A stretch of 64,000 bases of DNA. It comes from Chloroflexota bacterium. Its GTDB lineage: Bacteria > Chloroflexota > Limnocylindria > P2-11E. The position numbers and the translations under genes are program-made. Positions 1 through 25,200 of the stretch are shown one piece after another; within the stretch, counting starts at the first letter, position 1; each line of letters begins with the position of its first letter. The notes beneath the pieces are model-generated. The model was given only the letters and a program-made list of their open reading frames with translations. It was not told the DNA's origin and searched no databases. The stretch covers positions 2,075-66,074 of the forward strand of contig VBDQ01000017.1 of assembly GCA_005889075.1 (NCBI GenBank), written 5' to 3'.

Positions 1-999
1 CACCGTCGCGACCGTCTGCTCGGGTGACAGCTTCTCTGCAAGCGCAGTCGAGTCGCGCAGATCGGTGAACAGGATGGTCACTGTCTGACGCTCGCCCTCG
101 AGACGGAGGGGATCGCCCTGGATGACGCGCTCCACGACCACCGGCGGGAGAAAGCGCTCGAGGCCGCGACGCCGGTCGAGCTCGAGGAAGAGCGCGCCGA
201 GCGCGAGCGTGACCGAAATGAGCATGAGCCCGTGGTATTCCCACCAGGAGGGGGTCCAGACCGGCCCGAGGAACTGCGAGACCTGCGCTTGCGCGAGGAA
301 GAGGTAGGCGAAACCGAGCGCTCCCTGCAGCGGAAGACCGGTGCGGATGAAATCCCGGAGCTGCGCGATCGTCGCGAAGAGATAGAGCGCGACGACGAGT
401 CCCACGAGGGCGAAGGGAAGCCAGCCCGCGCCGCCGGTCACGTCGCCGGCGGCCGGCGCGCCGTAGCCGTAGGTCGAGGGGTCGTAGCCGGGCTGCGCGC
501 CGGTCTGCACGAGGATCCAATGCGCGATGCCGGTGAACGTGGCGGGCCACCCGAGGGCCACGGTCGCATATCCCGCGAGCGCGACGACGGTCGCGAGGGT
601 GAGCGCGCCAGCCTCGAGCCGACGCTCGAGCCAATCCGCCAGCGCCGTGTAGCGGATGGCGAAGAAGAGCGCCGCGACCGCGAGCGAGAGCTGGCCCGAC
701 ACGGCGACGACGAGGCTCGCCGCGGCGGCGCGATTGCCCTGCTGCAGGACATCTGGCGTGGAGAGACCGTGGACGGCGAAGATGCCGGCCATCGACGCGA
801 ATCCCAGGGCGACGAGCAGCGTGCGAAAGTGCGCGACCCCCAGCGCCGCGCGCGCGACGAGAAAGCCGACGAACGCGGCCACGATCGACACATTCGAGGT
901 GATCACGAAGTGCTCGAGCTTGATCACCCACGGCTGGTTGTGCGCCGGATCCGCAAGGAGCCACCACAAAAGCGCCGTCGGCGAAAGCGCGATGACCAT
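1..999 (-). CDS. membrane-anchored class III adenylate/guanylate cyclase, partial (C-terminus beyond left edge)
   Basis: Absent from the ORF track because it has no stop in the window. The minus-strand frame from ATG 999-997 gives about 290 aa of hydrophobic helices. It then reads VVERVIQGDPLRLEGERQTVTILFTDLRDSTALAEKLSPEQTVATV, the opening block of a class III cyclase catalytic domain. Confidence 0.7.
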   Translation of the reverse strand, partial: MVIALSPTALLWWLLADPAHNQPWVIKLEHFVITSNVSIVAAFVGFLVARAALGVAHFRTLLVALGFASMAGIFAVHGLSTPDVLQQGNRAAAASLVVAVSGQLSLAVAALFFAIRYTALADWLERRLEAGALTLATVVALAGYATVALGWPATFTGIAHWILVQTGAQPGYDPSTYGYGAPAAGDVTGGAGWLPFALVGLVVALYLFATIAQLRDFIRTGLPLQGALGFAYLFLAQAQVSQFLGPVWTPSWWEYHGLMLISVTLALGALFLELDRRRGLERFLPPVVVERVIQGDPLRLEGERQTVTILFTDLRDSTALAEKLSPEQTVATV

Positions 1000-1064
1000 C
1001 GCCGCGAGCGGCCGAGCTGGCGAGCGCACGGAGCGAGTCTACGAACGCGCGAGACGTCGGGTCG

Positions 1065-1445
1065 TCAGGCCGCTGAAGCGACGCGGGCGATCTTGGGCAG
1101 GAGCTCGGACAGATCGAATGGCTTCTCGATGACCTCCGCGGCGGCGAGAGTCTTGGCGTGCACCTTGAGGTCGCGCGCCGCCGAGAGCAGCACGAGCGGT
1201 ATGTCCTCCTCGCGCGCGCGAAGCTCCTTCACGAACTGCCATCCGTCCATCACGGGCATCATCAGGTCGAGGACGATCACGTCGGGATGGAACGTCCGCA
1301 TCGCCGCGAGCGCTTCCTGCCCATTCGCCGCGGGTACGCATTCGAAGCCTTCGTCCTCGAGCGCGGTGAAGAGCAGCTCTCGAATGTCCGGGTCGTCATC
1401 GACGACGAGCACACGTTTCCCCGCCACGTCGGCGGATGTTGCCAC
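1065..1445 (-). CDS. single-domain response regulator (CheY-like receiver)
   Basis: Track ORF 1065..1598 trimmed to in-frame GTG 1445, since the upstream gene stops at 1465. KRVLVVDDDPDIRELL...DVIVLDLMMPVMDG...EKPFDL gives the acidic pocket and phospho-acceptor Asp. No output domain. Confidence 0.85.
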   Translation of the reverse strand: MATSADVAGKRVLVVDDDPDIRELLFTALEDEGFECVPAANGQEALAAMRTFHPDVIVLDLMMPVMDGWQFVKELRAREEDIPLVLLSAARDLKVHAKTLAAAEVIEKPFDLSELLPKIARVASAA

Positions 1446-1464
1446 ACGAGTTCGGAGAAGGCGG

Positions 1465-1983
1465 TCAACCGAGCGGACGCGTTCCGCGCAGCGAAGCCGC
1501 GAAGACAGCAGGGATAAACACGATCCCGATGCTGAACAGCGCGACCCACAGCCAGATCGCCTCGATGTGGCACGCGATGCTCGCTGGACAGCCCTCAAGC
1601 GAGCGCTCGCGCTCGATCAGGAGCAGCGGGATCATCGCCGGCGACGCGACCACCGACGCCGCTGCGAACGTCGTGGCGATGGTGGCGATGCCCCGCTCGA
1701 TCCCGCCGGCGCGACGATCGATAACGCGCGCCTGCCAACGGGCCCAGAGGAAGGCGAGCACGCTCGCGAGCACCGCGAGGGTGACCGAGTAGGGAAAACG
1801 TTCGGTGAAACTTTTGTCTATGACGCGAGGAAGGGCAAGCTCACCAAGCGTGACCGCGGCCCAGTAGCCGAGCTTGATCGTGGTGATCCGGCCGACGAGG
1901 AGCGCGAGCGTTTTGTGCCGCGGAAGCGGCAGCGGCTCGCTCGCGACGGACCGGTCCACGAAGTCGCAGAATGCCATCCGCAA
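1465..1983 (-). CDS. hypothetical integral membrane protein
   Basis: Track ORF of 172 aa with several hydrophobic helices (VTLAVLASVLAFLWA, IWLWVALFSIGIVFIPAVFA). Same strand as the receiver gene and 19 nt upstream of it. No family recognised. Confidence 0.5.
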   Translation of the reverse strand: MRMAFCDFVDRSVASEPLPLPRHKTLALLVGRITTIKLGYWAAVTLGELALPRVIDKSFTERFPYSVTLAVLASVLAFLWARWQARVIDRRAGGIERGIATIATTFAAASVVASPAMIPLLLIERERSLEGCPASIACHIEAIWLWVALFSIGIVFIPAVFAASLRGTRPLG

Positions 1984-1994
1984 GGGGGGAGAGC

Positions 1995-2414
1995 ATGAAA
2001 TTCCAAGGACTGCTGATCGGATCGGAAGACCCGCGCCCGCTCAAGGACTACTACACGAAGATCTTCGGCCAGCCGCCGTTTGAGGACGGGGGTTACTTCG
2101 GATGGCAGCTCGGCGAGGCGATGGTCACCTTCGGGCCGCATGACCAGGTGAAGGGTCAGAACCGCGAGCCGGGCCGAGTGCTCTGGAACCTCGAGTCATC
2201 CGACGTCAAGGCTGACTTCGAGAAGCTCCGCCGGGCTGGTGCGACTGTCGTCCGTGAGCCCTATCGCCCGGGAGACGATGACGATGGAGATTTCTGGATC
2301 GCTACGTTCTCGGATCCCGACAACAACTACTTCCAGCTCATGAGCCCGATGCCGGAGGCTAGCGGTAGTTCGTCCACCACTTCTGCAGGAAGTACATCAG
2401 GGCGAGGAGGATGA
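1995..2414 (+). CDS. glyoxalase/bleomycin-resistance (VOC) family protein
   Basis: ATG 1995 is preceded by GGGGGAGAG. MKFQGLLIGSEDPRPLKDYY...FWIATFSDPDNNYFQLM has a VOC-fold-like layout. The low-complexity tail overlaps a minus-strand small ORF. Confidence 0.75.
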   Translation: MKFQGLLIGSEDPRPLKDYYTKIFGQPPFEDGGYFGWQLGEAMVTFGPHDQVKGQNREPGRVLWNLESSDVKADFEKLRRAGATVVREPYRPGDDDDGDFWIATFSDPDNNYFQLMSPMPEASGSSSTTSAGSTSGRGG

Positions 2415-2469
2415 ACACGGTCACGAGGACCATGTAGAACTCGGTCGCTTCGCTGACTTCGGTGATCAC
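2359..2469 (-). CDS. 36-codon single-TM ORF coupled to the cytochrome c gene (candidate small complex subunit)
   Basis: GTG 2469-2467 overlaps the cytochrome c TGA (2468-2466) as GTGA. It reads MITEVSEATEFYMVLVTVFILLALMYFLQKWWTNYR and stops at TAG 2361-2359. Third codon positions are GC-rich. It is below the track's 60-aa cut-off. A 56-nt overlap with the convergent VOC gene tail lowers confidence. Confidence 0.4.
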   Translation of the reverse strand: MITEVSEATEFYMVLVTVFILLALMYFLQKWWTNYR

Positions 2470-3587
2470 TTCAGGGTGTTCAGGTACTCAACGATCGCCT
2501 TGATCTGATCGTCGTTCAACTGGCCACCGTATGCGGTGCCGAATACGGGCATGACGATGCCGGGCTTGATCGACGGCGCGTTCTGGATCCAATGGAGGAG
2601 CCAGTCCGCGTCGCCGGCGGCCTTCTTCGCCTTGTTCTCGGCGTTGAGTGGGCCCTCCGTGCCGTAGTGGCCGAGGTTCGGTGCCTGGGGAAGGGTGCTC
2701 GGCTTCGACGGATCGAAGCTATGGCAGCTGATGCAGGGCGCCTGCGAGTTGCTCTGGGTCAGGGTCCTGCCGAGATCGGCGCCGGTCTGGATCACGGGCT
2801 TCGGCGGGTTCGGTGTGAGCGGCAGGTGTCCGTCCTCGGTGCCGGGCGTGTGCTGTCGCACCGTGACGACGTCGGCCCAGTCGGCGTCGGTGCCGTACAT
2901 GATGAAATTGATCAGCTGCTGGATCTGCTCGTCGTTGAGCGGTCCGCCATCGGTCGTGCTCCACGCGGGCATCGAGATCGCAGGTGGCGTCTTTGCGCGC
3001 CCGCGCTCGATCGTGAGCGTGATCAGGTCGGTCGTCGACTTGAGCGTCGTCGGATCGTTCTTGATGTTCTCGTACTTGAACTGTGGCCGGTTCAAGGGAA
3101 GCCCGGGGAGGCCGGCCTGGTTCGGATCGGTGCTCCCCAGACCGGTCTTGCCGTGACAGTCGAAGCAAAAGTTCGCGTACAGGTTGCGGCCGCGCTCGAT
3201 CGACTGGTCGAGCTGGTGCGTCTCGGCGAGCTTGTCGCGCCAGCGCTCGCTCGAGGCATCCGCGCGCACGACCATGAGCGTGAAGAAATAGCCGCCGACG
3301 AGGGCGAAGATCCCGAAGAGCATGGCCGCGCCGAGGATGATCTTCTTGTCGAGGTTCGCGCTGATCTCGAGGGGGTCCGGCGCGGCGGGGATCGGCGCGA
3401 CGTAGTACGGGGTGGGCTGCTCCACCGTTTGGCCCGGTGCGTAGTGCTGCTCGATGAGCTCGGCACCGGTCGGCTCCCTGGGCTCCATCGACTGCTGATG
3501 GAAGACGAGGAAGCCGAAGAACCCGACGAACGCGAGGAACAGCAACAGGCTGACCGCGGCGAGGACGAAGTTCGCGTCGAAGGTCAC
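2466..3587 (-). CDS. membrane-anchored dihaem cytochrome c
   Basis: Track ORF 2466..3827 trimmed to GTG 3587 (GTGA overlap with the Rieske stop). Two TM helices (FVLAAVSLLLFLAFVGFFGFLVF, ILGAAMLFGIFALVGGYFFTLMVV). Two CxxCH motifs (CFDCHGK, CISCHSF). Confidence 0.85.
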   Translation of the reverse strand: MTFDANFVLAAVSLLLFLAFVGFFGFLVFHQQSMEPREPTGAELIEQHYAPGQTVEQPTPYYVAPIPAAPDPLEISANLDKKIILGAAMLFGIFALVGGYFFTLMVVRADASSERWRDKLAETHQLDQSIERGRNLYANFCFDCHGKTGLGSTDPNQAGLPGLPLNRPQFKYENIKNDPTTLKSTTDLITLTIERGRAKTPPAISMPAWSTTDGGPLNDEQIQQLINFIMYGTDADWADVVTVRQHTPGTEDGHLPLTPNPPKPVIQTGADLGRTLTQSNSQAPCISCHSFDPSKPSTLPQAPNLGHYGTEGPLNAENKAKKAAGDADWLLHWIQNAPSIKPGIVMPVFGTAYGGQLNDDQIKAIVEYLNTLK

Positions 3588-4126
3588 TCCGTGATCTCCA
3601 GGTCCTTCGGGTTCCAGGCGTTCGCCGCGCGTGTGAGCACGTTGAGCGGGTTCGTGTCCACGATGAGCGTTCCGTTCGTGTCGGCGATGTGGAAGAGGTC
3701 GAGCGGTCGCGGCGCAGGCCCGCCGAGCACCACCGCGGTGTGCTTGTCGTAGAGGGAGCCGTGGCACGGGCAGTGGAAGCGGTCCTCGGCCGCGTTCCAG
3801 GGCACGCTGCAGCCGAGGTGCGTGCACTTGCGATAGGCGGCGGCGATGCCGCCCGGAGCGTGCAGCAGGAAGAACTTGCCCTCGATGTTCAGGATCGGCG
3901 TGTCGTTCGACGACTTGAACTGCGAGAGCACCGTGGCCTTCGCGCCGACCGGGATCTTCACGCCGAGGCCGACGATCTTGTTGACCCGGAAGAACGGCAC
4001 GATGATCGCGGTCAGCTCGACGGTCGCGAGGATCGTGCCGGTGAGAAAGCCCAACCGCAGCAGCTGCCGGCGCTTGATCCGGCCGATGAGCCCGGCGACG
4101 GTCGTGTCGGTGTGCGGCCGGATCAC
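3584..4126 (-). CDS. Rieske [2Fe-2S] iron-sulfur subunit
   Basis: Trimmed to GTG 4126, 5 nt after the upstream TAA. KRRQLLRLGF twin-arginine-like N-terminus plus a TM helix. CTHLGC ... CPCHGS Rieske boxes. Confidence 0.9.
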   Translation of the reverse strand: MIRPHTDTTVAGLIGRIKRRQLLRLGFLTGTILATVELTAIIVPFFRVNKIVGLGVKIPVGAKATVLSQFKSSNDTPILNIEGKFFLLHAPGGIAAAYRKCTHLGCSVPWNAAEDRFHCPCHGSLYDKHTAVVLGGPAPRPLDLFHIADTNGTLIVDTNPLNVLTRAANAWNPKDLEITE

Positions 4127-4131
4127 TTCAC

Positions 4132-4920
4132 TTAGCCGTGCGGCGCGTAGCACTGGCTCGTGGCCGGCACCGACCACGGCGTAAAGAGATCCATGCCCGG
4201 CCCGCGCATGGACGTACCCACGACCGTGAGCACGAGATACACGGAGATGAAGCCGGTGAAGATCGCGATCATCCACTCACGCGTGTTCGCGTCCCAAATG
4301 CGTTGCACGATGATCACCAAAAGGACCGAGAGCCCGATCATGATCACGATCGGGATGACGTAGTTCGGTAGCAGCTGCTTGCCGCCGGGGAAGTACTCGC
4401 TCGCGAACTCGATGTAGCCGTGGGCCTTCAGGAAGGCATCGAGCAGGATGAGCGAGAAGCAGAGGAGCGTCGCGTAGGCCGCGGCGAAGATCGTGATGCG
4501 CAGGCCGTTCTTGCTGGTAAACCAGATGCCGACGCCCTCGCGGCTGCGATCGATGTAGGGGATCGTCGCCATGAACACGAGCCAGAGCGTTGGCACGACC
4601 ACGCCGGCAAGTCCCTTGTCCATGTGGAGCAGGAGCTCCTGCAGGTTGAGCAGGTACCAGGGCGCCTTCGAGGGGTTCGGCGTGCAGTCCGGCGTCTGGT
4701 GGTCCTGGAGCGGCGCGTTGAACGCCGCCGAGATGACGAAGAGCCCGATCGACCAGAGCATCGCGGCGATGAACTCGATGACGAGCAGATGTGGCCAGAC
4801 CATCGCCGTGTCCTCGACGCGCTTGTCGACGCGCACCACCGAGTCCTGGCGCACGAACGCGAGCAAGCGAAGCCGCTTCTCCTGTCCCGGAAATGGTTGA
4901 GGACCGCGGGGAGTCGTCAT
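4132..4920 (-). CDS. cytochrome b C-terminal domain / subunit IV-like protein
   Basis: ATG 4920. Multi-TM protein. NPSKAPWYLLNLQELLLH aligns with the Qo-site PEWY loop of cytochrome b C-terminal domain / PetD-type proteins. Confidence 0.85.
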   Translation of the reverse strand: MTTPRGPQPFPGQEKRLRLLAFVRQDSVVRVDKRVEDTAMVWPHLLVIEFIAAMLWSIGLFVISAAFNAPLQDHQTPDCTPNPSKAPWYLLNLQELLLHMDKGLAGVVVPTLWLVFMATIPYIDRSREGVGIWFTSKNGLRITIFAAAYATLLCFSLILLDAFLKAHGYIEFASEYFPGGKQLLPNYVIPIVIMIGLSVLLVIIVQRIWDANTREWMIAIFTGFISVYLVLTVVGTSMRGPGMDLFTPWSVPATSQCYAPHG

Positions 4921-4956
4921 GCGCTATTCGCGAGCGCGGGCCGCGCGTTCGCGAGG

Positions 4957-5069
4957 GGGCGGCATGTTGTCTCGCGACGAGCGTCTGCGCCCAGCGCGCC
5001 CGACCGGTTCGCGCGCCGCACATCGGCGGGCGCGCGTAGCCAGCAGCGAGGAGCGAGACCATGCCGCCC
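4957..5069 (-). promoter_or_regulatory. intercistronic nested stem-loop between the cytochrome b6-like and subunit IV-like genes
   Basis: Arm 4957-4975 (GGGCGGCATGTTGTCTCGC) pairs with arm 5053-5069 (GCGAGACCATGCCGCCC) as 10 bp + 2-nt bulge + 7 bp. A nested 9-bp pair, GCGCGCCCG (4994-5002) / CGGGCGCGC (5027-5035), lies inside. Function is inferred only. Confidence 0.35.
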
Positions 5070-5113
5070 GCGAGCGGACAGCGCGGCCGCGGAAGCGAAG
5101 AAAACTGGACGAC

Positions 5114-5845
5114 TCACAGCGGTCCGGTGATGCCGCCGTCTTTGCGGATGCGCCAGAAATGGATCGCGATCAGGAAGCCGACGGCGAGCGGTAAGGCGAC
5201 GACATGCAGCACGTAGAAACGTAGTAATGCATTCGGCCCGAGCTGGAACCCGCCGAAGAGGACGAAGCTGAACTCGTCGCCGATGAAGGGCGTCGCGCGG
5301 GCGATCTCATATCCGACCGTGACCGCCCAGAACGAGAGCTGGTCCCAGGGGAGCAGGTATCCCGTGTAGGAGAGCAGGATCGTGAAGAAGAAGAGCAGCG
5401 TGCCGATGACCCAGTTGAACTCGCGCGGGGGCTTGTACGAGCCGGTGTAGAAGACGCGGATCATGTGCAGGAAGACGGTGATGACCATGCCGTGCGCGGC
5501 CCAGCGGTGCATGTTCCGCAGGAGCTGACCGAAAATGACGACGGTCTCGAGATCCTTGATGTCCGAATAGGCCCACTCGGTCGTCGGCCGGTAATAGAAC
5601 ATCAGCAGCGTTCCGGTCAGGGTGAGGACGAGGAAGAGGAAGAACGAGAGCCCGCCCATGCACCACGTGTAAGGGATCGCGAGCGCGTGCCGCCGCACCT
5701 TGACCGGGTGCAGGTGCAGGAAGACATTGGTGAAGACCGCGAGAGATTGGTTCTTCCGCGAGTCCGGATATCCGTGACGAAATAGCGACCGCCATATGTA
5801 GCTCGTCTTCGTCCGCTGCCAGATCTGGGCCGGTATCTCGAGCAC
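5114..5845 (-). CDS. cytochrome b6-type (N-terminal, 4-helix) cytochrome b
   Basis: Trimmed to GTG 5845-5843 (TAGTG overlap with the upstream stop). YTWCMGGLSFFLFLVLTLTGTLLMFYYRPT aligns with b6 FYCLGGIT...FYYRPT, including the Cys that binds haem ci in b6f. Bis-His pairs are HRWAAHGMVITVFLH (13 residues between) and HVVALPLAVGFLIAIH (14 between, b6-type spacing). Confidence 0.9.
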   Translation of the reverse strand: MLEIPAQIWQRTKTSYIWRSLFRHGYPDSRKNQSLAVFTNVFLHLHPVKVRRHALAIPYTWCMGGLSFFLFLVLTLTGTLLMFYYRPTTEWAYSDIKDLETVVIFGQLLRNMHRWAAHGMVITVFLHMIRVFYTGSYKPPREFNWVIGTLLFFFTILLSYTGYLLPWDQLSFWAVTVGYEIARATPFIGDEFSFVLFGGFQLGPNALLRFYVLHVVALPLAVGFLIAIHFWRIRKDGGITGPL

Positions 5846-7875
5846 TAGTGCTTGACGAGCTCCTTCTCTTTGACCTCGCCCGCGTGTCCGTCGCCATTTG
5901 GACCGTGCCCGTTCATCACCGGCTTGTACCCGACCGCGAGAGCCGGATCGTATTGCGGCAGAGGCCGCGCCGCTTTCTTCGCCGCGACCGTCAGGTCGAG
6001 ATGGATCTCGTCGTCGATCGATTCCTTCGGCAGGACATTGCCGACCGCGGGCATGACCGTGCCGTACCGGTTCATCGTGATCGCATCCGTCGGGCACCGG
6101 ATGATGCAGAGCGCGCAGCGGATGCACGCGGTCTCGTCGAGGAAGAACGCGACGCCGTTATCCCACTTCTTCGCCGCGGCCACGCCTGGGATGGAGCCGT
6201 CGTCGACGATGTCGCTCATGTCGACCATATGGATCACGTCCATCGGGCAGACGTCCACGCAGCCGCCGCAGATGATGCAGAGCTCGCCGATGATCTCGAT
6301 GTTGAAGTTGCACTTGAGGCAACGGTCGGACTCGGCGATCGCCTGCGCCTCGGTGTAGCCCTGGTTCACCTCGAGGAAGAGACCGCGGCGCTCCTGCTTG
6401 GTGAGCTTGGGCATCTCCTGCCGCGGGATGCGGTCGTAGTCGACGGACATGTTGTGGTAGACGCGGGCGAGCTCGCCCTCGAGAGCGATCATCCCGATGT
6501 TGTCCGGCGTCGACGACCGCCGGAGCGTGACCACCTCGTGGTACTCGGGCACGTTCACGGCGACCGCGTTGTCGTCGAGGAAGCGCGCGATCTGCTGCGC
6601 GGCCGAGCGGCCGTCGGCGACGGCCTCGATGATGGTCGACGGCGCCGTGCGGTAGTCACCGGCGATGAAGATCTTCGGGACGACGGTCTGGTAGGTCTCT
6701 TTGTCGACCTTGATCTCGGTCCAGCGCTTTACGCGGAACTCGGGGAAGTCCTGCGCGAGCCAGGTCGTATCCGGCGCCTGGCCGAGCGCGAGCAGCACGT
6801 TCTCACACGGAATCTCGAACTCGGAACCCTCGATCGGCTCGGGCGTGCGACGTCCTGACTTGTCAGGCTCCCCGAGCTTGTTGCGCACGAACTTCACCGC
6901 GCGCACGTGACCCTTGCCGTCGGCAAGGACCTCGACCGGGGACGCAAGGTAGACGAACTCCATGCCTTCGCGCTCGGTCTCCGTGAGCTCTTCCTCGTCC
7001 ACGACCATTTCGTCGCGGCTGCGCCGGTACACGATGTAGACCTGCTCGGCGCCCAACCGCCACGAGGTGGAGGCGCAGTCCATCGCGGTGTAGCCACCGC
7101 CGAGCACCACGACGCGCTTACCCACCTCGACCGGACGCCCGCGATACGCGCGCTCGAGGAACACGATGCCCGCCATGACGCCGGCGGAGTCTTCGCCCGG
7201 GATGCGCGGGTAGTTCGGCTCGAAGCAACCCGCTGCGACAAGCACCGCGTCGTACTCGTCGTGCAGCTGCCGCAGCGAGACATCGCGGCCGACATACGTC
7301 GACAGGCGGAGCTCGACGTTTTCGTTGACGACGCCGTTGATGTCGCGGTCGATGACCTCGCGCGGCAGCCGGAACGGCGGCACGCCCGCGAGCTGCGTTC
7401 CTCCAGCCTGGTCGAGGGCGTCGTAGACGGTGATGCCGAAGCCGAGCTTCGAAAGGTCGCTCGCGGCGGCGAGCCCGGCGCAGCCCGCGCCGATGATCGC
7501 CACCTTGCCGCGCGGCGGTCCGAACACCGGCGCGGGCGGCTGCGTGTACGAGTGGCCGTCGACCCGCACGTTCTGGTGCGTCCAGTCGGACAGGAACTTC
7601 TTCACGTAGCGGATCGAGAGGGGCTTGTCGACCTCTTTGCGCCGGCACGCCGTCTCGCACGGCGCGGCGCACACCGAACCGCAGATCGACGCCATGGGGT
7701 TCGGATCGAGCGCGAGCTCCCAGCCCTTCTCGAACTCACCCGCCGCGGCGAGATTCAAGTACCCGCGGCAATTCGTCTTGACGGGGCAGGCCTCCTGGCA
7801 CGGGATGTTGTCCTGATACCAGCCGGGACCTACCTCTACGACCTGGTAGAGCTCTCTCATCGGGGCTTCGGTCAT
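5845..7875 (-). CDS. GltD/NfnB/SudA-like NAD(P)H-dependent FAD oxidoreductase fused to a 2x[4Fe-4S] ferredoxin domain
   Basis: ATG 7875 (the track starts at 7905). N-terminal Cys clusters PCQEACPVKTNC and ICGSVCAAPCETAC. Dinucleotide folds KVAIIGAGCAGLAAA and RVVVLGGGYTAMDCA, plus IFIAGDY. C-terminal CIICGGCVDVCP and CIRCALCIIRCP. No TM helix. Confidence 0.85.
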   Translation of the reverse strand: MTEAPMRELYQVVEVGPGWYQDNIPCQEACPVKTNCRGYLNLAAAGEFEKGWELALDPNPMASICGSVCAAPCETACRRKEVDKPLSIRYVKKFLSDWTHQNVRVDGHSYTQPPAPVFGPPRGKVAIIGAGCAGLAAASDLSKLGFGITVYDALDQAGGTQLAGVPPFRLPREVIDRDINGVVNENVELRLSTYVGRDVSLRQLHDEYDAVLVAAGCFEPNYPRIPGEDSAGVMAGIVFLERAYRGRPVEVGKRVVVLGGGYTAMDCASTSWRLGAEQVYIVYRRSRDEMVVDEEELTETEREGMEFVYLASPVEVLADGKGHVRAVKFVRNKLGEPDKSGRRTPEPIEGSEFEIPCENVLLALGQAPDTTWLAQDFPEFRVKRWTEIKVDKETYQTVVPKIFIAGDYRTAPSTIIEAVADGRSAAQQIARFLDDNAVAVNVPEYHEVVTLRRSSTPDNIGMIALEGELARVYHNMSVDYDRIPRQEMPKLTKQERRGLFLEVNQGYTEAQAIAESDRCLKCNFNIEIIGELCIICGGCVDVCPMDVIHMVDMSDIVDDGSIPGVAAAKKWDNGVAFFLDETACIRCALCIIRCPTDAITMNRYGTVMPAVGNVLPKESIDDEIHLDLTVAAKKAARPLPQYDPALAVGYKPVMNGHGPNGDGHAGEVKEKELVKH

Positions 7876-7889
7876 GCTACCGGCGCGTA

Positions 7890-8384
7890 GTGGGCAGTCA
7901 AACACGAGGACCGATCACGGAACGTAAGACCCGACTGGACGGATCGGTCACCGACTACGCCTGCGAACGCGTAAGGATCGAGCCCGGGAAGCGCGCGGTG
8001 GTGCGCTTCGTCAGCGATCGGGACCGCGCGATCGAAGGCACCGAGCTCGTCCTCCGTGCGGGAACGGTGACGATCGGTCATTTCTGGGTCGACCGGCCAT
8101 ACAACGTCTACCACTGGCGCGACGGCGAGCGGACGATCGCGCTTTACGTGAGCATCGCCGACGGGACGACGATCGAGGATCAGCTTATCGCCTACACCGA
8201 CCTGGTGGTCGATGTCCTCGTCCGCCCATTCGGCGCGATCGAGATCCTCGACGAGGACGAGCTGCCGCCTGGCCTCGAGCCGCGGCACCGTCTCGCGATC
8301 GCGAAGGCCCTCGAGACGTGCGTCACCGAGCCGAAACGGCTGGTGAACGAGATCGAGCGGGAGACGCGAGCCGCGCTCGCATGA
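7890..8384 (+). CDS. DUF402 (FomD/Ntdp-like) domain protein
   Basis: Track ORF of 164 aa with GTG start. LIAYTDLVVDVLVRPFGAIEILDEDEL matches the DUF402 y.DL.lDv...lDeDEl block. Confidence 0.65.
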   Translation: MGSQTRGPITERKTRLDGSVTDYACERVRIEPGKRAVVRFVSDRDRAIEGTELVLRAGTVTIGHFWVDRPYNVYHWRDGERTIALYVSIADGTTIEDQLIAYTDLVVDVLVRPFGAIEILDEDELPPGLEPRHRLAIAKALETCVTEPKRLVNEIERETRAALA

Positions 8385-11370: not shown

Positions 11371-12321
11371 TCAGATCGGATACGCCCCGCAGACGCGGCA
11401 ATAGGTCCCCTCAGGCCCCCGCGCGTGACAGTCTGGGCAGGCCTTCGGCATGGCTGGATCGGGTCTGGGCGGGCCACCGAAGACGTCGCGGTAGAGGCGG
11501 TAGTAGGCCAGGGACTCGGGATCCCGGAGCCGCACGCCGTCCTGGGCGCGCACCGCCTCGGCCGCCGCGGCGAAGTCGGCGACCGTACCCGCCATCAGGT
11601 CCTTGAGGGCCGTGGCGCCGGAGCCGATCTCGATCGGGTCCTTCCTGCGGAAGGCGTGACGTGCCCCGATCTCGCCCGCGAACGCGCGCCGCAGCGGCGC
11701 CTTGCCGAGCCGCTGGCCGTCGTGGTCAAGGACCAGGTCTTCGCCGCCCAGCGTGAGCGCGTGGGCGATGATCTCCGGTTCGAGATAAGGACTCCGGACC
11801 TCGACGCCGAGCTTCTCGCCGATGAGCGTTCCATTGAAGTGCATCGAGGCCGCGAAGCGTTTGATCGTCGCGACGATCTCATCCGGCGCTTTGGTGTAGA
11901 CGAACGAGTAACCCGCGAAGAGCTCATCCGCGCCGTCGCCGGTCCAGCATGAGCGGATGCCGCGTCGAGCCACTTCCCTGAGACCCTCGAGCACGACGAT
12001 GTCGTTGCGGAGGTACATGCCATCGAAGGTGTTGAGCAGAGCGATCAGCTCTGGCAGCACCGTCGCAAGCTCAGCGACGGTACGACGCAAGACGACGTGC
12101 TCGATGCGGAGGCGCCGCGCGACGGCGGTTGCGTAAGCGAGGTCGGGCGGGTCGTCGCCGACGGCGACGGTGACGGCGAAACGAAGGCCGTGCCGAGCCG
12201 CAAGCGCGGCGACGATGCTCGTGTCGAGACCGCCAGACAAGAGGATCGCCTTACAGCGTCGCCGCGCGACCGCGGCATCGAGGAGCGCGGCGAGTCGATG
12301 GGTCGCGGAAACGAGAGGCAT
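11371..12321 (-). CDS. asparagine synthetase-like PP-loop amidotransferase domain protein (no glutaminase domain) with C-terminal zinc ribbon
   Basis: ATG 12321 (the track begins at 12360). ILLSGGLDTS PP-loop and DGADELFAGY block of the AsnB synthetase domain. No Ntn glutaminase domain. Ends in CPDCHARGPEGTYCRVCGAYPI. Confidence 0.75.
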   Translation of the reverse strand: MPLVSATHRLAALLDAAVARRRCKAILLSGGLDTSIVAALAARHGLRFAVTVAVGDDPPDLAYATAVARRLRIEHVVLRRTVAELATVLPELIALLNTFDGMYLRNDIVVLEGLREVARRGIRSCWTGDGADELFAGYSFVYTKAPDEIVATIKRFAASMHFNGTLIGEKLGVEVRSPYLEPEIIAHALTLGGEDLVLDHDGQRLGKAPLRRAFAGEIGARHAFRRKDPIEIGSGATALKDLMAGTVADFAAAAEAVRAQDGVRLRDPESLAYYRLYRDVFGGPPRPDPAMPKACPDCHARGPEGTYCRVCGAYPI

Positions 12322-12348
12322 CAGCCGACGATATCCTCGAACGGCCCC

Positions 12349-13494
12349 GTGAAGCTCCACGAATATCAGGCGAAGCAGCTCCTCGCGCGCGCGGGCATCC
12401 CCATCCCCGACGGACGACTGGCGACGACAGCCGACGAGGCCGAGAGGGCGGCGCGCGCGATCGGAGCGTCAGTCGCGGTGAAGGCGCAGGTTCACGTCGG
12501 TGGCCGCGGCAAGGCCGGCGGGATCAGGATCGCAAAGACGCCCGCGGAGGCGCGCGACGCGGCGAAGGCGATCCTCGGTCTGGAGATCAAGGGACTGCGA
12601 GTCGAGAAGGTCTACGTCGAGCGCGCCGCGGACGTGGATCGCGAGCTTTACCTCGGGATCACGCTCGACCGCGATCGGCGGCGGCCGGTGGTCATGCTGT
12701 CGACCGTCGGAGGGATGGACATCGAGCAGGTCGCGGCGACCGATCCGGACAAGATCGCGCGCGGGTGGCCGAGCCCGCTGCTCGGGCTGCTGCCGTTCGA
12801 GGCGCGCGCGCTCGCGTTCGAGGCCGGCGTTCCCGAGCCGCAGCGCGACGCGGTCGCGGACATCGCGCGCAAGCTCTTCACCGTCTACGTGCAGACGGAT
12901 GCCTCGCTCGTCGAGATCAACCCGCTCTTCGTTCAGAAAGACCGATCTCTCTTGGCGGGCGACGCGAAGCTCGACGTGGACGACAACGCGCTCTACCGGC
13001 AGCCGGAGCTTGCGAAGCTCAAGGAGATCTCGCGAGACGAAGAGGCCGAGGAGAAAGCGCGCGCGCTCGGCTTCAGCTACGTCCAGCTCGACGGAGACGT
13101 CGGCATCATCGGGAACGGCGCCGGGTTGGTGATGAGCACGCTGGACGCGGTGAAGCTCGCCGGCGGCCGCGCCGCGAACTTCCTCGACGTCGGCGGCGGC
13201 GCCAAGGAAGAGGTCGTGCGCAACGCGCTCGAGATCGTCCTTGCGAACCCTCGTGTCCGAAGCGTGCTGATCAACATCTTCGGCGGGATCACGCGTGGCG
13301 ACGAAGTGGCGAAGGGCATCCTTGCGGTGATCGCCACGCATCCGCCTCGCGTCCCGCTGGTGATCCGGCTCTCGGGAACGGAAGCGGAGGCGGGGCGCAA
13401 GCTCCTCGCGAGCGCACCGCTCGAGTCGCGCGAGACGATGGACGACGCCGCGAAGGAGGCGGTGCGGCTGGCGAAGGAGCCGGTCCGCGTGTGA
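12349..13494 (+). CDS. sucC: succinyl-CoA synthetase beta subunit
   Basis: GTG 12349. VKLHEYQAKQLLARAGIP... aligns with SucC MNLHEYQAKQLF along the full-length ATP-grasp and ligase-CoA domains. Confidence 0.95.
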   Translation: MKLHEYQAKQLLARAGIPIPDGRLATTADEAERAARAIGASVAVKAQVHVGGRGKAGGIRIAKTPAEARDAAKAILGLEIKGLRVEKVYVERAADVDRELYLGITLDRDRRRPVVMLSTVGGMDIEQVAATDPDKIARGWPSPLLGLLPFEARALAFEAGVPEPQRDAVADIARKLFTVYVQTDASLVEINPLFVQKDRSLLAGDAKLDVDDNALYRQPELAKLKEISRDEEAEEKARALGFSYVQLDGDVGIIGNGAGLVMSTLDAVKLAGGRAANFLDVGGGAKEEVVRNALEIVLANPRVRSVLINIFGGITRGDEVAKGILAVIATHPPRVPLVIRLSGTEAEAGRKLLASAPLESRETMDDAAKEAVRLAKEPVRV

Positions 13495-14360
13495 GCGTCC
13501 TTCTTGATCGGAACACCCGTGTCGTGGTCCAAGGTCTCGGTCGCGAGGGTTCGTTCCACGCGGCACGCATGAAGGAGTACGGCACCAAGGTCGTCGGCGC
13601 GACGAAGCCCGGCAAGGGCGGGACGACGCAGGAGGGCGTTCCGCTTTTCGACACGATGGCGCAGGCGGTCGACGCGACGGACGCGAACACCTCGATCGTG
13701 TTCGTCCCCGCGCCGTTCGCGATGGATGCGATGCTCGAGGCGATCGACGCGGGCATCGATCTCGTCATCGCGATCACGGAGGGAATTCCCGTCGCCGACA
13801 TGCTGAAGGTCGCAGCGGTGCTCGAAACGAGCGGGACCACGCTGGTCGGACCGAACGGTCCGGGGGCGATCACGCCGGGTCAGGCGAAGGTCGGGATCAT
13901 GCCGGCCGAGAACTTCTCGCCTGGCGGCATTGGGTTCGTGTCGCGCAGCGGGACGCTCACCTACGAGATCGCCGATCTGCTCACGCGCGCCGGCCTCGGT
14001 CAGTCGACGTGCATCGGCGTCGGCGGCGATCCGGTCGTCGGACTTCCCACCCCGGACGCGGTCCGTCTGCTGAACGAGGATCCGGCGACAGAGGCAATCG
14101 TGATCGTCGGCGAGATCGGAGGCAGCGCGGAGGAGCACGCCGCCGAGTACCTGCGGGCCGAGGGCAAGAAGCCCGCGGTGGCGTTCATCGCCGGTCGTTC
14201 GGCGCCTCCCGGCAAGCGCATGGGCCACGCCGGCGCGATCGTCTCCGGAAATCAGGGAACCGCGGAGTCGAAGGTGCGCGCGTTCGAGGAGGCGGGCATC
14301 CCGGTCGCGAACGCGCCGAGCGAGATCCCGGACCTGGTGAAGCAGGCGCTGCGGCGGTGA
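13491..14360 (+). CDS. sucD: succinyl-CoA synthetase alpha subunit
   Basis: GTG 13491 overlaps the sucC TGA (GTGA). SRSGTLTYE, GIGGDP-like GVGGDP and GHAGAIVSG (phosphohistidine loop). Confidence 0.95.
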   Translation: MSVLLDRNTRVVVQGLGREGSFHAARMKEYGTKVVGATKPGKGGTTQEGVPLFDTMAQAVDATDANTSIVFVPAPFAMDAMLEAIDAGIDLVIAITEGIPVADMLKVAAVLETSGTTLVGPNGPGAITPGQAKVGIMPAENFSPGGIGFVSRSGTLTYEIADLLTRAGLGQSTCIGVGGDPVVGLPTPDAVRLLNEDPATEAIVIVGEIGGSAEEHAAEYLRAEGKKPAVAFIAGRSAPPGKRMGHAGAIVSGNQGTAESKVRAFEEAGIPVANAPSEIPDLVKQALRR

Positions 14361-14833
14361 GGGCTTTTGCCGCTCTTACGATCATGCTCGCCGCCTCGTG
14401 TCAGAGCGAAGGGCCTCATCCACTGACCGCTGCGGCGAGCTCGCCGTTGGCGACGCAATCGCTTCAGGCAGCGGCGACCGGGCAAACGTTGGGCGCAGGC
14501 GACGCCCTCCGCGCCGTCTTCGCGTCGGAATCTGGCGGGTTCGCCATTTCGAGCACTTTCCCGAGTGCTGCCGGCGTCAGCGTGTGCCAGATACACGGCG
14601 GTGGCCCGCCGCCTGGCATCGTCGTTCCGGGCACATGCCGAACCGAGCTGTCCGCGACCGGATCGGGCTTCATCGTCACCTTCACCGAGACGTGGGATGC
14701 GCGGCAATTCCATCTGGCGACCGAACCGGCGACAGGTGAGCTCCACCATACGTGGTCGTTCACGGTCGACCGAGCTGGGGAAGTGGTCCTCACGGAGCAA
14801 TCGGGCAACTTCCCGCCGCAGCTCGTGCTCTGA
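14357..14833 (+). CDS. putative lipoprotein, unknown function
   Basis: GTG 14357 overlaps the sucD TGA (GTGA). VRAFAALTIMLAASC is a lipobox-like signal. The rest has no known family. Confidence 0.55.
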   Translation: MRAFAALTIMLAASCQSEGPHPLTAAASSPLATQSLQAAATGQTLGAGDALRAVFASESGGFAISSTFPSAAGVSVCQIHGGGPPPGIVVPGTCRTELSATGSGFIVTFTETWDARQFHLATEPATGELHHTWSFTVDRAGEVVLTEQSGNFPPQLVL

Positions 14834-14873
14834 TCGGTCGGGTCTTCTCGAGCCGACTGCTCTCGCTAGTCGA

Positions 14874-15248
14874 TTACGACCGTCGCGGCTGGAACAGCTC
14901 GACGACGTTTCCGGAAGGGTCCTCGAGGAGGATCTGCGAACCACCCGGGCCGGTCACGATGTCGTTCCGGAAGCGCACCCCCGCCGAGCGGAGCCGCGCG
15001 ACCTCGGCGGCGATGTCGTCGACCACGAGCTCGATCCGGTTCCAACCCCCTGGCTCTGGACGACGGCCGTCAGGCATCGGCCGGCCGGCCGAGCTCGTCG
15101 CGCCACTCAAGAGCAGACGCAGCTCGCCGCGCTTGACGTCGGCGAAGGCCGGTGCCGCGCTCGATAAGAGCGCGAAGCCAAGGTGCTTCGTATAGAAGGC
15201 GACCGCGGCGTCGACGTCGTCGACCATGTAGCGCACGTTGACGGTCAT
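14874..15248 (-). CDS. glyoxalase/VOC family protein
   Basis: ATG 15248 (the track starts at 15317). MTVNVRYMVDDVDAAVAFYTKHLGF...GGSQILLEDPSGNVVELFQP is typical VOC. Confidence 0.8.
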   Translation of the reverse strand: MTVNVRYMVDDVDAAVAFYTKHLGFALLSSAAPAFADVKRGELRLLLSGATSSAGRPMPDGRRPEPGGWNRIELVVDDIAAEVARLRSAGVRFRNDIVTGPGGSQILLEDPSGNVVELFQPRRS

Positions 15249-22155: not shown

Positions 22156-22256
22156 GTTTCCCTCCTCAAGCGTGTTTGTGTCGCGGGGCTGACCCTATTG
22201 CGGCAGAAGCAGGAGCACAAGCACCACCTCGCTTCCCTTCTCTAAACTCGCGCGCC

Positions 22257-25200
22257 ATGCGTGTCGCTTGGCTGGGTGAGCCCGCGTCGTTCGATGAGTC
22301 GGTCGTGGGCGGGAAGAGCGCCAACCTCGGCCGCCTCGCGGCGACCTTCCGCGTCCCGCCCGGTTTCTGCATCGACGCCGCGGTGCAGGCGCGGCTGGGC
22401 GCCGCGGTGAACGGCGACGCGTCAGCGCATGCCGAGCTGCACGAGCTGATCGCGACGTCGTACACGGAGCTCGGCCGACGGACCGGGGATACGCGTCCGC
22501 GCGTGGCCGTCCGCTCGTCGGCGATCGGCGAGGACTCCCGCGACGCGTCTTTCGCGGGCCAGTACGAGAGCGTCCTCAATGTCGCGGGCGCGCCCGAGGT
22601 CGTGGACGCCGTGCTCCACTGCTGGCGATCGGTGTCGTCGGCGCGTGCGGTCGCCTACCGGCGCGAGCGCGGCATGACCGAGACCCCGCGCGTGGCGGTC
22701 CTGGTCCAGGTCATGGTCGACCCGGATGTCTCCGCGATCGCCTTCAGCGCGGATCCGGTGAGCGGCTCGCGCGAGGTCGTCGTCGTGAATGCCGCACGTG
22801 GACTCGGCGATGCCATTGCATCGGGGACGATCACACCGGACACGTTCAGGCTCCGCAAAAGCGATCTCGCGATCCTCGAGCGTCGCGCCACGAACGGCGA
22901 TCCGATCGCCGACGACGCGGTCGTCGCGGTCGCGCGACTGACCGAGCAGCTGGAGCGCGCGATGGGCTGGCCGGTCGACATCGAATGTGCGCGCCAAGGT
23001 GACGAGCTCTACCTGCTGCAATGCCGTCCCATCACGACGCTGGGCGAAGAGTTTCCGATCGTGTGGCCACAGCCCGGCGACGACGCGCTCACGTGGACAC
23101 AGGAGGACACGCACTTCGACCAGGCGCTCGGCCCGCTGGCGATCGACTTCATCCGCAACGCCGTCGACTACACGATCCAGAAGCGGCTGCGCGACACCGG
23201 CTCGCCCGTGCGCGTCCGGCACGCGGCCTTCAACGGCCGGTTCTACGTGAGCTCGGAGCGAATCGTTCCGCCGGATGACTTTGCTGCGGCGATCGCGGCG
23301 GCGACGGCGCGCCGGCGCAGTGGTGCGCGGACGCTCCGACAGCTATGGCACGACGAGATGCTCCCGGAGCTGCAGAGGCACTACGAATGGATGCGCGCGC
23401 TCGATGTCATGACGATGCCCGCCGCAGCCGCGGCCGCTGCGTGGGCTGACCTCTGGCGCCGCGTCCGACGGATCTGGGTGCTCCACTTCACGGTCACCGG
23501 ATCCGCATACCCGGTCATGGAGGAGCTCGCCGAGGCCTACGCGGCCGCGACCGGCGAGGCCGGCACCGCTGCCTTTGCGATCATCGCTGGCCTCGCGCCG
23601 ACGCTGCAGCAGCTCGAGGTCGATCTCGAGTCACTCGTCGAGACCGCGCGGGCCTCGGGCGGCACGGAGTCGGCCGACTTCGCGCGAGCCCTCGCGTCGT
23701 TCCTCGCGCGGCACGGCGACGTCGGCCAGGAGACACTCGACGTCGCGTCACCCGCGTGGCGCGACGATCCCGCGCGCCTCATCGCGCTCGTCTCCGCGCG
23801 GGCGCGCGCCGAGCCCGGCGAGACCGCGGCCGACCGCCAGGCCCGACTGCGGGCGCGCGCCGACGAGCTCGTCGCGCGCGCTCGCGCGCACCTTTCCGAC
23901 CGCTCCGCGGAGCGCGAGCGATTCGACGAGATCGTGACCGCGGCGTGCGCTGCCGGACCGCTGACCGAAGAGCACAACTACTGGATCGACCGGGTCTCGC
24001 AGGCGCTGGTCCGCCGAGCCGCGCTCGCCTTCGGCGACCGGCTCGCCCGCGACGGCGCGATCGCCTCGCCCGAGGATGTCTTCCTTCTCTACGCAGCCGA
24101 GGTCGAGGCGGTGCTGCGGCAGCCTTCCGACCAGCGTGCGCTCGTGGAGCACCATGCGAGCGAGCTGCGGCGCTGGAAGCGGCTCCGCGCGCCGAAGACG
24201 ATCGGCACGCCTCCGAGTCGCGCACCCGAAGGCGAAAAAGCGCCGGCCGCGGTCGTGGATGCGCCGGACGGCAGGTACCTGCTCAAGGGAGCCGGGGCGT
24301 CCATTGGAGTGGGCCGAGGGCCCGCGCGGCTGGTGCGCGACGACGGCGACTTCGCGAAGATGCGAGACGGCGACGTCCTCGTCTGCCACGCCTCGACGGT
24401 GTCATGGATCCCGCTGTTCACGATGGCATCGGCCATCGTCACGGAGATCGGCGGCGTCCTCGAGCACGCCGCCGTCGTGGCGCGCGAGTTCGGCGTTCCG
24501 GCGGTCGTCGGCGTCGAGGCGGCGCTCACGACGCTCGCCGACGGCGAGCCGCTCGAGGTGGACGGCGCGACCGGCCTGGTCAAGCGCCTGTTCCCGGTGA
24601 AATGGTCCGATCCCGACGACGCCAAGCTGCTCTGGCGGCGCGACGACGCGCACAACACCCGCGTGATCGCGCCGCTCGCGATCGAGTACGTTCGGCATGG
24701 CGCGACCTACGGGATGAGACGGCGCGACGCCGAGCTCGGGCCACCCGTCGTGCAGCGGATCGATGCGTTCAACGGGCGCACCTACACGAGCACGCGCTGG
24801 CTAAAACCTGCCGACGAGATGCCGTCGCATCTGCGCGCCGCCCAGCTGCGCCGTCGCGAGCTCGCGCGCCGGATCCGCCGCGATTGGGACGAGCGCTACC
24901 TTCCCGAGCTCGACGAGCACTACCGCTGGATGCGCGCGCTCTCCGTTTCCGAGCTCACGCCGCAGGAGGCCGCCGAGGCGTGGGACGATCTCTGGCGCCG
25001 CCACCGTCGCGCGTGGCGCATCCACATGCTCGTCACGGCCGGCTCGTACGCGGTCATGGATGAGCTCTCCGAGATATGGGTGGAGCTCCTCGGCGGCGAG
25101 CAGTCCGACGCGTTCGCGCTCACGCAGGGCCGCGCGCAAACGCTGCAGCGTCTGGAGCGGGACCTGCACGGGCTCACCGAGAGCGCGCGGCGATCGTCGC

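Follow-up and report, generated by a model that had tools for sequence, protein, structure and literature searches.

An NAD(P)+-reducing Rieske/cytochrome b complex, which would be a membrane-bound case of electron bifurcation, has been proposed but, to my knowledge, never shown at work in a biochemical experiment. Its discussion has been confined almost entirely to the slow-growing anaerobic ammonium-oxidizing (anammox) bacteria. The closest described systems are the R/b-2 (kuste4569-4574) and R/b-3 (kustd1480-1485) complexes of Kuenenia stuttgartiensis. Rieske potentials of +303 and +335 mV have been measured in Kuenenia, and its subunit IV has five helices (PMC12954380). In the same paper, it was argued that, when a high-potential Rieske protein is paired with menaquinol, the remaining low-potential branch can reduce NAD(P)+. 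In Kuenenia, co-migration of the homologous flavoprotein subunits with those of the membrane part has been reported (de Almeida et al. 2016, cited both in PMC5600118 and in PMC12954380). Two surveys reach beyond anammox bacteria. In the passage that describes it, the APWY clade of Kao and Hunte (2014; PMC4122944) comprises Chloroflexi, Planctomycetes, Nitrospirales, and delta-proteobacteria and has only mid-to-high-potential Rieske proteins. Dibrova et al. (PMC5600118) remark in their passage on subfamily G that large, Cys-rich oxidoreductases that bind NAD(P) accompany its short cytochromes b "in many other cases". Here I analyze an operon of this kind at positions 2359-7875 of a 64,000-nucleotide stretch of DNA (the window, to which all positions below refer) from a Chloroflexota bacterium (Limnocylindria; P2-11E; assembly GCA_005889075.1, contig VBDQ01000017.1, positions 2,075 to 66,074).

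The operon consists of six co-oriented minus-strand open reading frames (ORFs), encoding a soluble iron-sulfur (FeS) flavoprotein, a b6-type cytochrome b, a subunit IV-like protein, a Rieske protein, a dihaem cytochrome c, and a 36-residue membrane peptide. A first-pass annotation, made from the sequence alone, had recognized this arrangement and its unusual soluble subunit. The locus is of value for the breadth and the strictness of the linkage between the flavoprotein gene and the Rieske/cytochrome b genes, for an invariant histidine (His44) of its cytochrome b, and for its simpler, dihaem make-up. In the favored reading, which I hold at a probability of roughly 45%, quinol oxidation would be bifurcated to cytochrome c and, via the b haems, FeS clusters and FAD, to NAD(P)+.

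Linkage of the flavoprotein to Rieske/cytochrome b genes across phyla

An alignment of eight flavoprotein sequences was scanned against one genome per GTDB species, and the best 80 loci were kept (related loci from the genome scan bear L-numbers below). An alignment of 32 sequences gave no usable locus search, as no stretch of it was conserved enough. Each of the 80 loci was searched with the six proteins of the window. Four loci end at most ~550 nt past the flavoprotein match, which is too short for a cytochrome b gene, and two of them show a cut Rieske gene. In all of the 76 informative loci, a cytochrome b6 gene starts no more than ~900 nt downstream of the flavoprotein gene. A subunit IV gene was found in 73 of these loci, and subunit IV together with the Rieske gene lies alongside in nearly all. 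The record titles of the linked loci span at least 10 phylum-level labels, namely Chloroflexota, Acidobacteriota (many loci), Planctomycetota (the Brocadiales metagenome-assembled genome L081 and Phycisphaerae), Nitrospirae, Zixibacteria, Omnitrophica, Thermodesulfobacteriota, Deltaproteobacteria, Myxococcales, Eisenbacteria, Abyssobacteria, and Victivallales. The adjacency of flavoprotein and cytochrome b, whose absence in relatives would have told against the first-pass annotation, is a constant feature of these relatives.

Two gene orders were found. In Chloroflexota, the order is flavoprotein, cytochrome b, subunit IV, and Rieske, while nearly all other loci and the Limnocylindrales locus L036 have the order flavoprotein, Rieske, cytochrome b, and subunit IV. 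Since the linkage is kept in both orders, it would reflect selection on the linkage and not inherited synteny. The cross-phylum linkage is a strong argument that the flavoprotein and the Rieske/cytochrome b subunits are functionally associated, and a physical association with the membrane subunits is probable. Judged from these gene neighborhoods, the flavoprotein subfamily appears to be dedicated to Rieske/cytochrome b complexes. The sample consists of the nearest relatives of the flavoprotein and does not imply that every Rieske/cytochrome b complex has one.

The whole operon is intact in five further close relatives. Flavoprotein homologues at 80-96% identity number in the hundreds, and the named ones are mostly from Candidatus Limnocylindria or Chloroflexi metagenome-assembled genomes. 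When more diverse named homologues were sought with a profile, the matches were for the most part these close relatives again. A second Chloroflexota operon type, from Limnocylindrales/Limnocylindrus, was also seen (L003-L025, L043, and L078). Its flavoprotein has 616 residues, is 45-47% identical to that of the window, and lacks the insertion and the C-terminal tail described below, and its partner is a monohaem cytochrome c. The locus L036, with its Acidobacteria-like gene order, has an octahaem cytochrome.

The flavoprotein

The flavoprotein gene (5845-7860, minus strand) encodes a soluble protein of 671 residues, identified by profile and structure-homologue matches and by invariant cysteines. 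Pfam domains Fer4_20 (residues 23-102), Pyr_redox_2 (124-422), and Fer4_7 (533-598) were found. From the N-terminus, the protein has a two-cluster Cys domain, FAD and NAD(P) Rossmann folds (VAIIGAGCAG and VVVLGGGYTAMD), a YRR motif, an RCLKC pair, and a 2x[4Fe-4S] ferredoxin domain. The motifs CIICGGCVDVCP and CIRCALCIIRCP are present. The N-terminal Cys clusters, the two dinucleotide folds, and these two motifs had all been named in the first-pass annotation, and the profiles and a motif check verified them. The YRR motif suggests NADP+ as the acceptor. The hydropathy scan of the flavoprotein flagged only the two Cys-rich ferredoxin segments and no true transmembrane (TM) helix, in agreement with the earlier view of a soluble subunit.

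The best NCBIfam model is PRK12771, at 439 bits under a cut-off of 516; the GltD-family models TIGR01317 (198 versus 448) and TIGR01316 (323 versus 472) also stay below their cut-offs. The nearest solved structures are NfnA (9n5u) and NfnABC (9bov/9bp5), with an E-value of 1e-98, and NfnB (4ylf_B) matches at 5e-85. Across the flavoprotein family, Cys21, 25, 64, 68, 72, 514, 517, 528-538, and 579-589 are invariant. Thus, the cysteine ligands of the two clusters at the N-terminus and of the two at the C-terminus, the RCLxC pair, and both dinucleotide folds are family-wide features. An insertion of ~19 residues that follows the NAD domain and a conserved C-terminal tail of ~70 residues behind the ferredoxin domain are specific to the lineage of the window.

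The first-pass annotation had the gene begin at 7875. Because almost all homologues start with MRELYQ, the start is probably the ATG at 7860, five codons inside that ORF. A sigma-70-like promoter candidate, TTGACT-16 nt-TAGCAT (7874-7901, minus strand), lies directly 5' of this start, and its position fits the MRELYQ start of the homologues. It is the single match in 6.8 kb against 0.8 expected by chance and is weak by itself. Since the candidate ends at 7874, its use would give a very short leader or a leaderless transcript. A divergent DUF402 gene (7890-8384, plus strand) adjoins the operon, 14-29 nt from the flavoprotein start, and the same divergent pair is found in L001, L083, L084, and L085. 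The two genes may have a common compact regulatory region or leaderless transcripts; DUF402 could lie this close because the flavoprotein transcript is leaderless or near-leaderless.

The membrane subunits

The b6-type cytochrome b gene (5114-5845, minus strand; 243 residues) was identified by profile matches (Pfam Cytochrome_B, E-value 9e-44), by the four canonical haem histidines H113, H127, H214, and H229, which are conserved, and by the haem-cn motif CMGG (CxGG), whose cysteine is residue 62. The NCBIfam ExtP equivalog NF040969 scores 293.2 bits, just over its cut-off of 290. The closest solved protein is cytochrome b6 (E-value 5e-46).

The window protein has a 59-residue N-terminal extension, which bears the invariant motif N40-x2-L43-H44. 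His44 is kept in 77 out of 77 cytochrome b sequences of the family. Solved b6 structures can be aligned only from residue 60 onward, so that His44 lies outside the b6 homology. In b6, the N-terminus and the haem-cn cysteine are on the n side of the membrane. By this topology, the extension with His44 would face the cytoplasm. For Kuenenia, AlphaFold3 predicts an interfacial haem b on Kuste4571 His43 or Kustd1481 His62 of two cytochrome b copies (PMC12954380). The invariant His44 fits this prediction; it may well bind such a bridging or extra haem and is probably the counterpart of Kuste4571 His43. The corresponding histidine of the Brocadiales locus L081 is at position 34, which is uninformative for the numbering because L081 is a different paralogue from Kuste4571. 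The invariance of His44 gives independent comparative support for a haem so far seen only in structure prediction.

The haem-cn cysteine is less widely conserved. It is present in 38% of the family, including the window, all Chloroflexota, the Nitrospirae locus, and the Brocadiales locus; the other 62% have Tyr or Gly there. Since the loci without this cysteine keep the flavoprotein, haem cn would be dispensable for the flavoprotein link.

The subunit IV-like membrane protein (4132-4920, minus strand; 262 residues) gives weak profile matches, namely a correctly placed Cytochrom_B_C match (E-value 0.0066) and an ExtQ match (40 bits). Five separate hydrophobic helices were seen in the hydropathy scan. 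Its Qo motif is APWY (in KAPWYLL), as in 74 out of 74 subunit IV sequences of the family.

The Rieske [2Fe-2S] protein (3584-4126, minus strand; 180 residues) has a profile match (E-value 5e-9), a twin-arginine N-terminus (KRRQLL), one TM anchor, and the cluster motifs CTHLGC and CPCHGSLY, the latter with a Ser-Tyr signature. In the family, 72 of 75 sequences have CPCHGS-x-Y (24) or CPCHGS-x-F (48) in box II, and this signature predicts a mid-to-high potential. The best structural matches are b6f Rieske proteins (E-value 1e-17) and 9rk4/9rk3. The 85%-identical relative L001 has a tandem Rieske duplication (13771-14882 of that locus; 187 and 183 residues), in contrast to the single copy in the window.

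The cytochrome c and the 36-residue subunit

The next gene (2466-3587, minus strand) encodes a membrane-anchored dihaem class-I cytochrome c of 373 residues, with two cytochrome c domains and the haem motifs CFDCH and CISCH. Two CxxCH motifs are found in the window and in its type-A Chloroflexota relatives and one in type-B Chloroflexota, and most loci outside Chloroflexota have a 6-10-haem cytochrome c downstream of the core. On the basis of these motifs, the output side in the window resembles an ordinary complex III of aerobic respiration.

The last ORF (2359-2469, minus strand) encodes a single-TM subunit of 36 residues, with translational coupling to the cytochrome c gene suggested by a GTGA overlap. 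It is kept in four relatives, where YFLQKWWTxY is invariant and the DNA changes are mostly synonymous. Because the peptide is conserved over mostly synonymous variation, the ORF, which had been put forward in the first-pass annotation, is a real gene.

Gene junctions and the intergenic spacer

The six ORFs and their junctions are as first annotated, apart from the flavoprotein start, and Pfam and NCBIfam profiles agree with all of the gene assignments. At 5845, the stop codon TAG of the flavoprotein gene and the start codon GTG of the cytochrome b gene share one G. A GAAGGAG Shine-Dalgarno-like site lies 14 nt 5' of this GTG. Subunit IV is separated by a 5-nt gap from the Rieske start codon GTG (4126), and GTGA stop/start overlaps join the Rieske gene to the cytochrome c gene at 3587 and the cytochrome c gene to the 36-codon ORF at 2469. 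A search for consensus terminators inside the operon gave six matches, all within coding sequence, against 3.2 +/- 2.1 expected, which is no significant signal. Given the overlaps of 1-4 nt or short gaps and the absence of a significant terminator signal, the six genes most probably form one operon. A terminator or promoter that would split 5845-7875 from the cytochrome genes was a possibility raised at first, and the 1-nt overlap at 5845 leaves no room for one.

The genes of cytochrome b and of subunit IV are separated by a GC-rich spacer of 193 nt (4921-5113, minus strand). The first-pass annotation was correct in calling it structured, since it folds as a single long hairpin (dG -111.9 kcal/mol, z -3.4 versus shuffles), but it overstated the significance, for close relatives lack the hairpin. 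The spacer is 0 nt in L083-L085, whose flavoproteins are 82-89% identical to that of the window, and 85 nt in L082. In L001, it is ~197 nt but of unrelated sequence, and only L002 shares part of the window sequence. Because it is absent or different in close relatives, the spacer is a lineage-variable insertion and not a conserved regulatory RNA. Possibly, the hairpin stabilizes the mRNA or serves in its processing. No Rfam family matched the spacer, and no further copy, which a repeated or mobile element would have left, was found in the window or in 85 loci, except for the partial match in L002. A 66-codon ORF (5117-4917) that overlaps both neighbors was rejected as a gene; it is Arg/Ala-rich GC noise and is lost together with the spacer.

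Direction of electron flow

The operon encodes cofactor motifs for a [2Fe-2S] cluster, haems bL, bH and cn, two c haems, four [4Fe-4S] clusters, FAD, and NAD(P). In the bifurcation reading, the flavoprotein would be docked on the cytoplasmic (n) side of a membrane-bound Rieske/cytochrome b6-type quinol oxidoreductase. Menaquinol, the probable quinol, would be oxidized at the APWY-type Qo site. The first electron would go to the high-potential Rieske protein, the anchored dihaem cytochrome c, and a terminal oxidase, while the second, strongly reducing electron would cross the membrane via haems bL and bH. Instead of reducing quinone at the Qn site, or besides doing so, this electron would pass via haem cn and the probable extra haem on His44 of two cytochrome b copies to the four [4Fe-4S] clusters and FAD, and would finally reduce NAD(P)+. 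As in the anammox proposal, a Rieske protein at +300 mV with a low-potential quinol would leave a semiquinone reducing enough to drive the b-haem/FeS/FAD branch. The complex would then be a respiration-driven bifurcating quinol:cytochrome c / NAD(P)+ oxidoreductase. I favor this reading because a carboxylate-free APWY Qo site and a high-potential Rieske signature occur throughout the family, and because the FeS/FAD wire is complete and the closest solved homologues are NADPH-binding, bifurcating Nfn enzymes; the docking of the flavoprotein, the extra haem, the quinone type, and the direction of flow are the parts that I infer.

Several points weigh against it. NAD(P)H production is a proposal even for anammox bacteria, the only carriers whose complexes have been approached biochemically. 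The carriers are mostly Limnocylindria and Acidobacteriota, which are assumed to be organotrophs and have no obvious need of reverse electron flow. The gene content of the window is that of ordinary tricarboxylic acid (TCA)-cycle and transport genes. With its haem-cn cysteine retained, the complex could well have a working Qn site and run a normal Q cycle. Moreover, the AlphaFold2 model of the flavoprotein, built from a 21-sequence alignment, is poor (mean pLDDT 52.6), with only the FAD/NAD core confident, so that docking cannot be judged from it.

The same complex might run the opposite way, which I regard as possible though rather unlikely. The flavoprotein would then be an NAD(P)H (or reduced-ferredoxin) dehydrogenase module anchored on cytochrome b6, and electrons would pass from the FeS clusters via the extra haem, haem cn, and haem bH to quinone at the Qn site. 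Such an enzyme would be an NAD(P)H:menaquinone reductase fused to a Q-cycle menaquinol:cytochrome c reductase, comparable to cyclic flow through ferredoxin:NADP+ reductase (FNR) and b6f. This direction is thermodynamically downhill and would be useful to aerobic organotrophs, the assumed lifestyle of most carriers, and the dihaem class-I cytochrome c resembles an ordinary respiratory output. The CxGG motif, which in b6f belongs to Qn chemistry, is kept in Chloroflexota, Nitrospirae, and Brocadiales. In addition, cytochrome bc complexes have been proposed, in the part of PMC5600118 on their origin, to descend from membrane-anchored dehydrogenases of the same layout. However, the opposite direction leaves unexplained the family-wide pairing of a non-carboxylate APWY motif with a high-potential Rieske protein. 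It would also waste energy in comparison with proton-pumping complex I, as argued in PMC12954380, and the 62% of the family without the haem-cn cysteine still have the flavoprotein.

An unlikely alternative is a reversible redox valve. Here, the complex would mostly run a normal Q cycle, and the flavoprotein would equilibrate NAD(P)H/NAD(P)+ with the b haems. Electrons could flow either way, as the quinone pool's redox state and the proton-motive force dictate, in the service of overflow, redox balancing, or NADPH homeostasis. The coexistence of a plausible Qn site (CxGG) with a complete FeS/FAD wire is consistent with such a valve, and the wide ecology of the carriers, from anaerobic anammox bacteria to soil organotrophs assumed to be aerobic, suits general balancing better than one specialized reaction. 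Against this, a valve would be hard to tell apart from the directional models except by kinetics. It is very improbable that the flavoprotein is an independent soluble GltD/NfnB/SudA-like NADPH oxidoreductase merely co-transcribed with a menaquinol:cytochrome c reductase, as its lack of a TM helix and its best NCBIfam matches to generic GltD-family models, all under cut-off, could suggest, because the adjacency holds in 76 out of 76 loci from at least 10 phyla and in two gene orders, the gene shares a 1-nt stop/start overlap with cytochrome b, GltB, NfnA, or another usual partner is not nearby, and the Kuenenia homologues are reported to co-migrate with membrane subunits in the work of de Almeida et al. 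(2016) cited above.

The functional options named in the first-pass annotation, a quinol:NAD(P)+/ferredoxin route (reverse or bifurcating) and an NAD(P)H:cytochrome c route, remain live options. Whichever direction holds, the physiological question of such complexes is widened beyond anammox bacteria, since the core of APWY, high-potential Rieske signature, His44, five-helix subunit IV, and Nfn-like flavoprotein is conserved in at least 10 phyla. The Limnocylindria form is stripped-down, with a dihaem cytochrome c as the sole periplasmic partner, and should be a simpler experimental target. Limnocylindria and Acidobacteriota are abundant in soils and are assumed to be aerobic. A tentative and doubtful extension of the bifurcation reading is that the complex in Limnocylindria, Acidobacteriota, and at least eight other phyla is a general, overlooked membrane electron-bifurcating enzyme, which would use O2-driven quinol oxidation to make NADPH or reduced ferredoxin via the His44 haem without a cost in proton-motive force. 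If this is true, the anammox complexes are one specialization of a widespread means of providing reducing power, and the dihaem Chloroflexota form is the simplest one for a proof. The bifurcating direction, if true, changes models of NADPH supply and respiratory efficiency in abundant soil bacteria. If electrons run from NAD(P)H to quinone, the complex represents an NAD(P)H dehydrogenase of a new type, with complex III as its base.

Genomic surroundings

The window has ~68% G+C. The surrounding genes encode succinyl-CoA ligase, DUF3048, a Na+/H+ exchanger, citrate synthase, Rho, MoaC, and ABC transporters. A 551-kb Limnocylindria-type contig shows synteny with the genes closest to the operon, namely DUF402, succinyl-CoA ligase, DUF3048, and the Na+/H+ exchanger. 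The locus lies in chromosomal DNA of an ordinary kind, from a soil Chloroflexota bacterium. Within the window, no other respiratory-chain genes, quinone-biosynthesis genes, or second complex III were found.

Some neighboring genes may be noted. In L001, L082, L083, and L085, genes for a response regulator and, behind it, a guanylate/adenylate cyclase are found 0.5-1.6 kb downstream of the operon; the window has a convergent glyoxalase-like gene (1971-2414) instead. A 588-residue ORF (232-1998, plus strand) has no Pfam match. A 592-residue gene near the operon in L082 (306-2084 of that locus), also without a Pfam match, may be its homologue. The succinyl-CoA ligase beta and alpha genes (sucCD; 12097-14360, plus strand) appear as overlapping maximal ORFs. 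In the ORF 12765-14360, the Pfam domains of the alpha subunit start only at residue 248, so its true start must be far inside that ORF. A 1340-residue ORF (22176-26198, plus strand) has a PPDK_N (ATP-binding) domain and two PEP-utilizer mobile domains and is an unusually long member of the phosphoenolpyruvate (PEP) synthase / pyruvate phosphate dikinase superfamily.

Comparison with known systems

The NfnAB, NfnABC, and GltD proteins share with the window flavoprotein an N-terminal two-cluster domain and the FAD and NADPH folds. The window flavoprotein differs in the extra C-terminal 2x[4Fe-4S] domain and tail and in its linkage to Rieske/cytochrome b genes. No GltB, NfnA, or other usual partner gene was found near the flavoprotein gene in the window or in the close relatives examined.

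The cytochrome b6f complex resembles the window complex in its split cytochrome b/subunit IV and its haem-cn cysteine. It also has an NADP-linked flavoprotein, FNR, on the n side (Zhang et al. 2001, as cited in PMC5600118). However, b6f has cytochrome f, PEWY, and a three-helix subunit IV, whereas the window operon has no cytochrome f, has APWY, and has a subunit IV with five helices. The cytochrome b of b6f lacks the 59-residue extension, and the b6f flavoprotein is a plant-type FNR, unlike the GltD/Nfn-type FeS protein encoded within the window operon. The QcrABC complexes of Actinobacteria and Firmicutes are similar to the window complex in being a complex III anchored in the membrane, with a dihaem cytochrome c as the output and a host whose quinone is probably menaquinone. 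In contrast, QcrB is a long cytochrome b with PDWY, QcrABC has no flavoprotein subunit, and the window proteins score far below the NCBIfam cut-offs (QcrB 107 versus 500, QcrA 37 versus 275, and QcrC 23 versus 200). Thus, by the missing cytochrome f, the APWY motif, and the Qcr scores, the operon stands outside canonical b6f and actinobacterial QcrABC, as had been claimed.

The ExtOPQ proteins of Geobacter, encoded in extHIJKLMNOPQS, are another point of comparison, as the window cytochrome b passes the ExtP cut-off by a narrow score and subunit IV is weakly like ExtQ. Besides multihaem cytochromes, the ext cluster contains a porin and a rhodanese, and its published gene list includes no flavoprotein (PMC5877670). 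This context of porin, rhodanese, and multihaem cytochromes is absent at the window operon, and ExtQ is short (a 134-position model) in comparison with the 262-residue subunit IV. The "selenite/tellurite" name of ExtP does not transfer to the window operon.

The APWY clade and subfamily G, as characterized in the passages cited at the outset, share with the window the Qo motif, the mid-to-high-potential Rieske signature, and a scattered taxonomy with Chloroflexi among the members. Those treatments are phylogenetic; in the parts concerned, they do not describe a Limnocylindria operon, the dihaem cytochrome c, the 36-residue subunit, or His44. Searches of the available literature library returned no description of this complex in Limnocylindria, and nothing specific in Acidobacteria or Chloroflexi. 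Still, the novelty was overstated in the first-pass annotation, since the co-occurrence with flavoproteins is already noted in the passage of PMC5600118 and Chloroflexi are already listed in the APWY clade in that of PMC4122944.

The choice of the anammox Rieske/cytochrome b clusters as precedent pointed to the right family, with the Brocadiales locus L081 among the 80 nearest relatives and the hallmarks in common. The flavoprotein of L081 is 34% and its cytochrome b 54% identical to that of the window. Kuenenia R/b-2 and R/b-3 have, like the window, a split b6-type cytochrome b with CxGG, a five-helix subunit IV, a Rieske protein with Ser in box II, and a cytoplasmic NAD(P)-binding four-cluster FeS flavoprotein related to NfnABC (9bp5); the extra N-terminal His in cytochrome b is probably equivalent as well. 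The window differs in its gene order, its 36-residue subunit, the insertion and long tail of its flavoprotein, and its non-anammox host. Its partner protein is a dihaem class-I cytochrome c, while the Kuenenia partner is a hexa- or octahaem cytochrome or an HAO-like protein. Mainly because of this dihaem cytochrome c in place of a multihaem one, the window complex, as read from its genes, is best regarded as a Chloroflexota variant of a documented class, that of the anammox R/b-2 and R/b-3 complexes and the APWY clade/subfamily G, and not as a new class.

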